A stretch of 32,000 nucleotides of DNA, taken from Candidatus Iainarchaeum sp. (lineage in GTDB: Archaea > Iainarchaeota > Iainarchaeia > Iainarchaeales > 0-14-0-20-30-16). The notes below the pieces were generated by a model. That model was not told the origin of the DNA and did not search any database. It saw nothing but the letters and a program-made list of their open reading frames with translations. This document shows positions 30,290-30,388 of the stretch, piece by piece. The stretch is from assembly GCA_028710695.1 (NCBI GenBank), contig JAQTTP010000001.1, positions 1 to 32,000 of the forward strand, given 5' to 3'. A program made the translations under genes and the position numbers. The first letter of the stretch is position 1; each line of letters begins with the position of its first letter.

Positions 30290-30350
30290 TCCGGGATTTT
30301 TAAAAAATCCTAGGTTGGCAAAATGACCATATCCCACAGAGGGATATTCC
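30290..30350 (-). promoter_or_regulatory. conserved structured 5' leader of tRNA-Gly (copy 2 of 2)
   Basis: Minus sense: GGAAUAUC-[CCUCUGUGG]-GAUAUGGUCAUUUUGCCAACCUAGGAUUUUUUAAAAAUCCCGGA, abutting the tRNA. It matches 18963-19032 apart from one substitution, a 2-nt U-run length difference and the apical part of the first stem-loop. Confidence 0.6.
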
Positions 30351-30388
30351 GTACCTGTCAAATTGTATTATATCTTCTACTTAGGGGT

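Follow-up and report, generated by a model that had tools for sequence, protein, structure and literature searches.

Why do two unrelated tRNA genes of one archaeal genome carry nearly the same block of DNA directly in front of them? The question is raised by a stretch of 32,000 nucleotides (nt) from Candidatus Iainarchaeum sp. (contig JAQTTP010000001.1, positions 1 to 32,000; hereafter the window), in which a first-pass annotation reported a conserved leader ahead of tRNA-Asp(GUC) and a second copy of it ahead of tRNA-Gly(GCC). The second copy is real. The Gly leader (30290-30350, minus strand) and the leader cassette of tRNA-Asp (18963-19032, minus strand) are 92% identical over a 37-nt core and agree in 57 of 72 aligned columns (79%). 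BLAST aligned the two loci with E = 2.7e-18 over a match spanning leader, tRNA, and trailer, nhmmer matched the two leaders with E = 2.8e-8, and the 43-nt core with three or fewer mismatches had 0 matches in 100 shuffles of the window. Three explanations had been offered for the block: a processing or chaperone-binding leader, a sensor of tRNA status, and gene conversion between tRNA cassettes. The last of these, exchange of cassettes between tRNAs, fits best with what we found, namely mosaic leaders and a nearest copy of the Gly leader located at tRNA-Ile(GAU) of a congener. On balance we lean slightly towards the reading that the Gly block is a copy of a recombining, structure-preserving repeat, which would be tolerated because processing discards it.

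The Gly cassette is 61 nt long, reads GGAAUAUCCCUCUGUGGGAUAUGGUCAUUUUGCCAACCUAGGAUUUUUUAAAAAUCCCGGA, abuts tRNA-Gly, and is composed of three modules, all on the minus strand. The first hairpin (HP1, 30329-30347) was taken from the minimum-free-energy fold and pairs AUAUCCC with GGGAUAU over 7 base pairs (bp) around the loop UCUGU. Its stem base AUAUC/GAUAU is common to other copies, and the hairpin tops covary. The middle module (30314-30328) consists of the U-tract UUUU (30320-30323) and the linker GCCAAC; TTTTG(G/C)C is the most conserved stretch in the family alignment. The second hairpin (HP2, 30291-30313) folds as CC.GGAUUUU...AAAAUCC.GG, a GC-clamped U-run/A-run stem of 7 bp with a 2-bp extension, and ends 1 nt before the tRNA +1. 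The 3' arm of HP2, AAAUCCCGG (30291-30299), is identical to the 3' part of the T-loop/T-stem of tRNA-Gly (30226-30234). This match is absent from the nearest leader copy in the congener (AAAUCCCUG) and is probably a coincidence.

The cassette belongs to a repeat family of the source genome (G000), which has 0.9 Mb and 32% G+C and is 86% complete. For a census we inspected the flanks of 31 tRNAs called by ARAGORN and searched with an nhmmer profile of the leader; a covariance model was dropped as MAFFT aligned the 3' arm of HP2 inconsistently, and BLAST and direct reading of the flanks were used. The profile found the same architecture before at least 13 tRNAs, plus orphan copies, one of which (C15:78807-78872) lies ahead of a protein gene. 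The shared architecture reads GGnnUAUC, a variable hairpin, GAUnUGG, UUUUG(G/C)C with the linker, and a GC-clamped U-run/A-run hairpin that ends 0-6 nt before +1. Perfect hairpins of at least 7 bp that end no more than 6 nt from the tRNA occur in 15 of 30 5' flanks and 14 of 31 3' flanks, while shuffled flanks gave about 0.2; such flush hairpins are ca. 70-fold above the shuffled level. The 3' flanks carry the same modules inverted, in the order hairpin, linker such as UAAGUUCGCC, purine tract, and distal hairpin, and the trailers of tRNA-Phe and tRNA-Ile(GAU) are almost exact reverse-complement leaders. The hairpin is always on the gene side, in leaders and trailers alike. Conservation between the Gly and Asp loci does begin abruptly at GGAAUAUC, as annotated; it does not end at the tRNA as was also stated, but resumes after it, the trailers being members of the same repeat family. 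Other stable-RNA genes are flanked as well. A trailer cassette follows the RNase P RNA gene, another lies ca. 0.4 kb downstream of the 23S rRNA 3' end, and a trailer-type hairpin with a third tract is located just 3' of the match to the signal recognition particle (SRP) RNA. The RNase P RNA gene itself, only 227 nt long (C23:21311-21537), has a plain TATA promoter without a leader cassette. In the window, only the three tRNAs matched Rfam 15 at gathering score, and the orphan-copy loci, compared with Rfam at E up to 1, yielded nothing but tRNA, rRNA, and chance hits. By BLAST, the leader part was found within the genus only, and trailer-type matches in several other families of the order.

We then inspected the trailer of tRNA-Gly, again on the minus strand. 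It begins 6-7 nt past the discriminator base with a 12-bp hairpin, CUUUUUUCUUUU-UC-AAAAGAAAAAAG (30186-30211). The trailer linker CAUAAGUUCACC (30174-30185) is a near reverse complement of leader linkers such as GGCGAACUUA, and its class recurs in many trailers. It is followed by a third purine tract, AAAAAAGAAAAG (30162-30173), which is the mirror image of the purine arm of the hairpin, and by the distal hairpin GGGGC-AUAAA-GCCCC (30145-30159). The stem of the distal hairpin covaries while its loop AUAAA is kept, as in GUGCC-AUAAA-GGCAC after tRNA-Asp and GGGCC-AUAAA-GGCCC in the two congeners used for comparison (G001 and G002). The genomes used here are incomplete metagenome assemblies, and the relatives are not independent samples. 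Many cassettes share this design, in which a pyrimidine arm pairs with a complementary purine arm and a linker of 10-12 nt leads to the third tract. A third tract that mirrors the arm suits the third strand of a triple helix, and one that repeats it directly suits an alternative Watson-Crick partner. In the tRNA flanks of the source genome and the two congeners, the third tract is the better mirror in 22 cases and the better direct repeat in 4 (by distinct sequence classes, 17 versus 4). The three-tract feature is seen in the Gly trailer, with a mirror score of 11 versus a direct score of 9. The mirror tract in the wider family can be read as the signature of an intrastrand triplex, the formation of which is predicted. 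In the Gly leader, the only candidate for a third tract is UUUU against the U6/A5 hairpin, and mirror and direct repeat are indistinguishable there.

A second trailer of this kind lies in the window at tRNA-Lys(UUU) (22657-22732, minus strand), which has no leader cassette and a trailer cassette at 22590-22656. This trailer reads AGCUUUUCUUU-CAA-AAAGAAAAGCU, linker CCGGUCCAUC, mirror tract AAAAGAAA, and then a GC hairpin, and it also follows tRNA-Arg(UCU) on contig C19.

At the family level, leader and trailer linkers are reverse complements, and a processing stem like that of archaeal rRNA genes can be imagined: UUUUGGCNAAC in the leader linker and GUUNGCCAAAA in the trailer linker would pair, and the resulting helix would bracket the tRNA and be cleaved by an endonuclease. 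The pairing does not follow the gene. Duplexes between the leader and trailer of one tRNA average -24.5 kcal/mol and mismatched ones -30.6 kcal/mol (permutation p = 0.99), and the best leader-trailer duplex of tRNA-Gly is poor, ranking 17th of 30. For many tRNAs one of the two, leader or trailer, is missing, and inspection of the junctions by eye, with no program run for this motif, revealed no bulge-helix-bulge. We consider such a stem very improbable.

What happens to the cassette at the same locus in close relatives? In G002, the tRNA is 99% identical, and around it the Gly locus keeps the end of the upstream gene with the AGATATAATA box and the start of the downstream gene with its promoter and spacer. 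Between the box and the tRNA, however, there is a 40-nt stretch containing only CCUUUUUAUAAAAGG, and the trailer is a different cassette. The Gly leader of G001 keeps the U-tract, the linker GCCAACCUAG, and the tail CCGGA, and has no trailer cassette; the linker GCCAACCTAG of the source genome is also found in it. Neither congener has HP1 in its orthologous Gly leader. The HP2 stems of the source genome and G001 differ by two compensatory pairs, C-G to G-C and C-G to A-T. Some flush U-run/A-run hairpin is present at the Gly locus in G000, G001, G002, G004, and G036, with varying sequence. The closest copy of the Gly leader is not orthologous: it is the leader of tRNA-Ile(GAU) in G001 (53 of 61 positions, 87%), compared with 79% for the Asp leader and 68% and 56% for the orthologous Gly leaders of the two congeners. 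The 3' half of the Gly leader also stands before tRNA-Leu(UAA) in G001 and tRNA-Phe in G002.

Modules are also recombined within the source genome. The leader of tRNA-Arg(CCU) is a mosaic, of which the first 41 nt including HP1 are of the Glu(CUC) type and the rest is of the Gly/Asp type. The Gly trailer matches a copy at C26:54621-54687 with 94% identity, and the breakpoint at which the two diverge lies inside the distal hairpin. Entire cassettes come and go: in G000, a 74-nt cassette lies exactly between the conserved promoter region of tRNA-Pro and its +1 and is missing from G001, while tRNA-Val and tRNA-Ile(UAU) have a cassette only in G001. Between G000 and G002, the last 60 nt before cassette-bearing tRNAs are 43-58% identical (median 55, n = 5) and those before cassette-less tRNAs 48-92% (median 65, n = 10), both being small samples. 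Judged by the strict hairpin criterion, the presence of a cassette per isoacceptor agrees between G000 and G001 for 6 with and 9 without one and is discordant for 10. The conservation of presence per isoacceptor that had seemed strong by eye is only partial under this criterion, and we did not rely on it. Beyond the genus, three complete or near-complete relatives in the order were used to judge patchiness. In G008 (94% complete, one contig), 2 of 31 5' flanks have hairpins, both only A/T palindromes, and 4 of 31 3' flanks have hairpins that are mostly unrelated; G036 has hairpins at 5 of 32 5' and 3 of 32 3' flanks, several of them cassette-like; and G022 has a different, GC-richer hairpin type. 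This patchy distribution argues against an essential role. In G036, the 5' flanks of Gly(GCC), Gly(UCC), and Ser(GGA) share GGAUGAA or UGAUGAA before the flush hairpin, a further stereotyped leader module that differs from the one of the source genome.

These comparisons bear on the proposal that the leader is specific to tRNA-Gly and tRNA-Asp and regulatory, sensing the status of the tRNA or coupling it to the gene of an exported protein. The proposal takes its appeal from a block common to two unrelated tRNAs, each of which is followed by a gene whose product is predicted to have an export signal or a membrane span. The leader is nevertheless not kept at the orthologous Gly locus, the syntenic Gly leaders differing in both congeners; the same cassette stands before Ile, Leu, and Phe tRNAs in congeners; its modules flank many unrelated stable RNAs; and no Rfam family matches it. 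The first-pass annotation had named strain-specific flanks at orthologous loci as a finding that would count against conservation of the block, and this is what we see in part, the full leader being lineage-specific at the Gly locus. Of the link to exported proteins, the domain assignment stands: the downstream open reading frame (ORF; 29116-30096, minus strand) encodes an SLT domain (lytic transglycosylase) behind a hydrophobic N-terminus. The link itself looks coincidental, as the gene has its own conserved putative TATA box, TTATAAATA (30118-30126, minus strand), 21 nt ahead of the ATG at 30096. In G002, an A/T-rich box, ATATATATA, is found at the same spacing, and the spacer after the box and the ATG are kept. 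If this promoter is functional, it speaks against a need to transcribe the gene together with the tRNA. Taken with the other points, it leaves a locus-specific regulator scarcely credible.

How would the cassette be transcribed? The answer depends on the promoter, and hence on the host. The source genome is that of a DPANN-like archaeon: archaeal 23S rRNA, archaeal RNase P RNA, and archaeal SRP RNA were all detected, the initiator tRNA has A1-U72, and some tRNAs have introns. Since the host is an archaeon, the AT-rich box annotated at 30366-30373 (minus strand), which is present and reads ATATAATA, is most likely a TATA box of the tRNA-Gly unit and not a bacterial -10 element. It lies at -77 to -84 of tRNA-Gly, while positions -23 to -30 read GCCAACCT; the positions of this and the other TATA-like boxes were assigned by eye. 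The archaeal box A is usually 26-27 nt ahead of the transcription start (PMC3491384), which would place the start of the tRNA-Gly transcript at ca. 30343-30348, just inside the cassette. Three other promoter assignments were rejected. A bacterial promoter, with TTGCCA/TTGGCA as -35 element or TGGCA-N-TGCC as sigma-54 site, has spacings that are inconsistent among copies, and the host is an archaeon. Were HP2 the TATA box, its center at ca. 12 nt before +1 would place the start inside the tRNA. The start of the cassette as the transcription start is at odds with distances between TATA-like box and cassette that range, by eye, from ca. 4 to 25 nt among copies.

Some tRNAs of the source genome without a cassette, namely Met-i (C3:52182), Arg-GCG (C19:100342), Thr-CGU (C14:7438), and His (C5:1156), have a TATA-like box centered ca. 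25-26 nt upstream, the distance being taken from the mature 5' end and, for tRNA-His, from before G-1. Their transcripts may thus have no leader or almost none, as in Nanoarchaeum equitans, even though the RNase P RNA gene is present.

The T-runs of the cassettes, which occur on both strands, could in principle act as terminators or insulators, stopping transcription into or out of highly expressed stable-RNA genes. The known archaeal tRNA terminators are T-stretches just past the gene (PMC3491384), and the trailers conform to this: the T-rich arm of every trailer begins 2-7 nt after the tRNA, and tRNAs without a trailer cassette have plain T-runs at the same place. The symmetric orientation around the genes would fit a two-way barrier, and the SLT promoter comes directly after the Gly trailer. 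The leaders do not conform. Because their T-runs (T4 and T6 at Gly; T5 and T8 at Asp) are located between the tRNA and its own TATA box, they would end the tRNA's own transcript. The GC clamps, the compensatory changes, the mirror third tract, and the conserved linker are left unexplained by termination, and cassettes also occur inside tRNA introns. We regard termination as an improbable explanation of the family.

The cassettes in these introns adjoin exon 2. In the intron-bearing tRNA at C23:22062-22261 of the source genome (labeled Asn by ARAGORN), the 3' 60 nt of the intron are nearly identical to the tRNA-Ile(GAU) leader. The intron of tRNA-Thr(UGU) in G001 (L073:1501-1677) likewise has a full leader-type cassette at its end, set directly against exon 2. 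Three further calls were noted. The intron of tRNA-Gly(GCC) in G016 (L035:1418-1536), counted among those built from such cassettes, has a hairpin followed by an A9 tract and then a GC hairpin. tRNA-Met(CAU) with a 66-nt intron (C15:96964-97104, minus strand) has both leader and trailer cassettes and was missed by ARAGORN without the intron option. With that option ARAGORN also called C14:2510-3455, whose 854-nt "intron" is implausible and probably a false positive.

The flush position in leaders and introns alike may reflect a processing clamp. A flush hairpin, with or without a third strand, would keep the A/U-rich flank out of the tRNA fold, and the few unpaired nucleotides left between hairpin and tRNA would give access to the processing enzymes: RNase P on the 5' side, tRNase Z on the 3' side, and the splicing endonuclease where exon 2 begins; the turnover of sequence would then be neutral drift plus exchange, with structure as the constraint. 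The position favors a clamp (0-6 nt from the tRNA in 38 of 43 5' cases, with the enrichment over shuffles given above), the leader-type cassettes of both introns are flush with exon 2, and the flush hairpin persists at the Gly locus in the five genomes named, with the two changes relative to G001 being compensatory. Several cassette-less tRNAs whose TATA box lies ca. 25-26 nt before +1 may need no 5' processing at all. The distribution is less favorable to a clamp, with essentially none in G008, few in G036, and a different GC-rich type in G022, and so are the ca. 11 of 31 tRNAs without a leader hairpin in the source genome and the partial concordance per isoacceptor between G000 and G001. Moreover, a hairpin ending 0-1 nt from +1, as at Asp and Gly, would be expected to impede RNase P. 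A processing role of a generic kind, without specificity for the Gly locus, may exist, and the clamp in the form described here is rather unlikely.

We propose instead the following course for the repeat. A modular unit of HP1, U-tract with linker, and HP2 is placed flush at the ends of stable-RNA genes in the source genome and relatives in its order. The Gly cassette, between the TATA box and +1, would mostly be transcribed as a 5' leader of ca. 55-60 nt, and RNase P, the RNA gene of which is present, would cut this leader off. DNA recombination would move modules from one tRNA flank to another, fast enough to be seen within the genus, with the hairpins staying intact during exchange and the mirror third tract being kept in the wider family. 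No Y1 transposase was found in the source genome (no PF01797 match at 86% completeness) and no reverse transcriptase in G000-G002, which makes recombination between DNA copies the most economical route of spread. The cassette would be a self-perpetuating structured repeat, probably dispensable, and any benefit, such as an exposed cleavage site or a T-run that stops transcription, would be secondary.

Several observations weigh against this proposal. The flush placement at 0-6 nt and the near-perfect stems are precisely what functional selection would be expected to produce in a streamlined genome of 0.9 Mb, and the compensatory pairs of HP2, with the flanks kept, look like purifying selection on the hairpin. 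A mobilizing enzyme was not found in these genomes, which are 76-86% complete. The TATA box is only 15 nt ahead of the cassette, which puts the predicted start ca. 3-8 nt into HP1, so that HP1 may not form fully in the RNA. The Gly leader alone folds only modestly better than shuffled sequences (z = -1.64); the fold of the whole tRNA-Gly precursor has z = -3.47. The triplex reading has no purchase on the Gly leader, the pure U4/U6 tract of which is uninformative.

Among known systems, the closest kinds are PIT/TMECO and REP/BIME repeats, from which the archaeal family differs in composition, fixed position and orientation, and extra modules. PIT (potential intrastrand triplex; also BoxC or TMECO) repeats of Enterobacteria and other bacteria are multi-copy intergenic elements with a pyrimidine arm, a loop, a purine arm, a loop, and a second purine tract; no function has been found for them so far, earlier tests having seen neither promoter nor terminator activity, and the loci bearing them are unusually rearranged between close strains (PMC4666352). 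The three-tract design of the Gly trailer and many family members and the swapping of cassettes between congeners resemble these repeats. So does the combination of stems of at least 8 nt with enrichment over scrambled sequence, seen here in the 12-bp trailer hairpin and in HP2 with its 7 + 2 bp. TMECO, however, is bacterial and G/C-rich, has second loops of 3 nt, and is not tied to tRNA genes (the word "tRNA" is absent from the text of PMC4666352), whereas the archaeal cassettes are A/U-rich, contain additional hairpin modules, conserve a second loop of 10-12 nt, and abut stable-RNA ends always in the same orientation. The Gly leader, with only U4 as third-strand candidate, departs further from the bacterial design.

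REP/BIME sequences (repetitive extragenic palindromes and mosaics of them) of Gram-negative bacteria are short imperfect palindromes, dispersed between genes and combined in mosaics, with compensatory change and fast turnover, and REPs are mobilized by RAYT (Y1) transposases. To our knowledge, REPs are not placed against tRNA ends and have no mirror-image third tract. The archaeal family is likewise made of dispersed imperfect palindromes combined as mosaics, as seen in the shuffled leader modules and in the breakpoint of the Gly trailer relative to its C26 copy; unlike REPs, it has no Y1 transposase that we could find in the source genome.

Nanoarchaeum equitans offers a comparison for the flanks themselves. 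Its tRNA genes have box A at -26, leaderless transcripts, and a T-stretch terminator, and no such cassettes are described for it (PMC3491384). The source genome is that of another small-genome archaeon with stereotyped tRNA flanks, and several of its cassette-less tRNAs, with a TATA box ca. 25-26 nt upstream and a T-run after the gene, look similar. They differ from tRNA-Gly, where the TATA box is 77-84 nt upstream with the cassette in between, and the source genome contains RNase P RNA.

Transposed or duplicated archaeal tRNA introns, together with the likeness of leader and intron in split and intron-bearing tRNAs, are a fourth point of reference. Those described are reportedly whole bulge-helix-bulge introns of Thermoproteales. 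The cassettes resemble them in occurring both as leader and as the 3' part of an intron, and differ in that the Gly copy is a leader and in that the unit in common with gene flanks is a hairpin or triplex module. In a literature search of open-access papers, intrastrand-triplex repeats were found in bacteria only, and no description of tRNA-flanking cassettes in DPANN archaea was found.

The cassettes could represent an undescribed class of archaeal elements, in which a triplex-folding core would be needed at, or would occupy, the RNase P, tRNase Z, and splicing junctions. Because the cassette is seen as leader, trailer, and 3' part of introns, it could also be raw material for the tRNA introns and split tRNA genes of DPANN archaea. 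We put this broader proposal forward as an unlikely one. If the cassettes merely ride in the discarded parts of precursors, they would be the archaeal counterpart of the bacterial REP and PIT repeats, and they would conveniently mark genome changes of very recent date in uncultured DPANN archaea. If instead the flush hairpin or triplex is needed for cutting, it would point to an unknown requirement of tRNA maturation where the RNA-processing machinery is reduced. Either way, a module that occurs both as leader and as an intron segment adjacent to exon 2 offers a concrete, testable route to the gain of a tRNA intron. For annotation, the conserved "leaders" of these genomes are to be treated as repeats and not as locus-specific regulators.

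The remaining features of the Gly locus are as follows. tRNA-Gly(GCC) itself (30218 or 30219 to 30289, minus strand) was called by ARAGORN and matches Rfam RF00005 with 67.5 bits; no CCA is encoded. Its acceptor stem, GCGAUUG / CAUUCGC, has the annotated U5-U68 mismatch, which is found also in G002 and G004 and is a G-U pair in G001. The gene behind which the block had been placed is indeed transglutaminase-like: the upstream ORF (30389-31714) contains a Transglut_core domain, and 38 nt separate the end of its stop (30389) from the block. An SLT enzyme, which cuts peptidoglycan, would not be expected of an archaeon and may be connected with a bacterial host or prey; the downstream gene that encodes it is kept with its promoter in G002. 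An ORF of 1260 residues without Pfam match (25324-29106, plus strand) converges on the SLT gene, with 9 nt between the stop codons.

One subfamily of leaders is of interest for its first hairpin. In copies of the type GGGYUAUCGAG...CGAAGAUGG (C3:133799-133840, C19:91590-91625, and other leaders), HP1 keeps the pattern AUC-GA-[covarying stem]-GAA-GAU-GG. These letters match the consensus of a kink-turn (K-turn), with a 3-nt bulge GAA and tandem G-A/A-G pairs, and resemble box C'/D'. Binding by L7Ae may be considered a lead only, as the K-turn has a competitor in a register that is Watson-Crick paired throughout. For the Gly copy a K-turn was considered as well and rejected, its HP1 being a plain 7-bp hairpin; the consensus letters are found only in the sister subfamily. 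A similar AUCGAG...CGAAGAUGG stands before tRNA-Gly of G016, a member of another family of the order.

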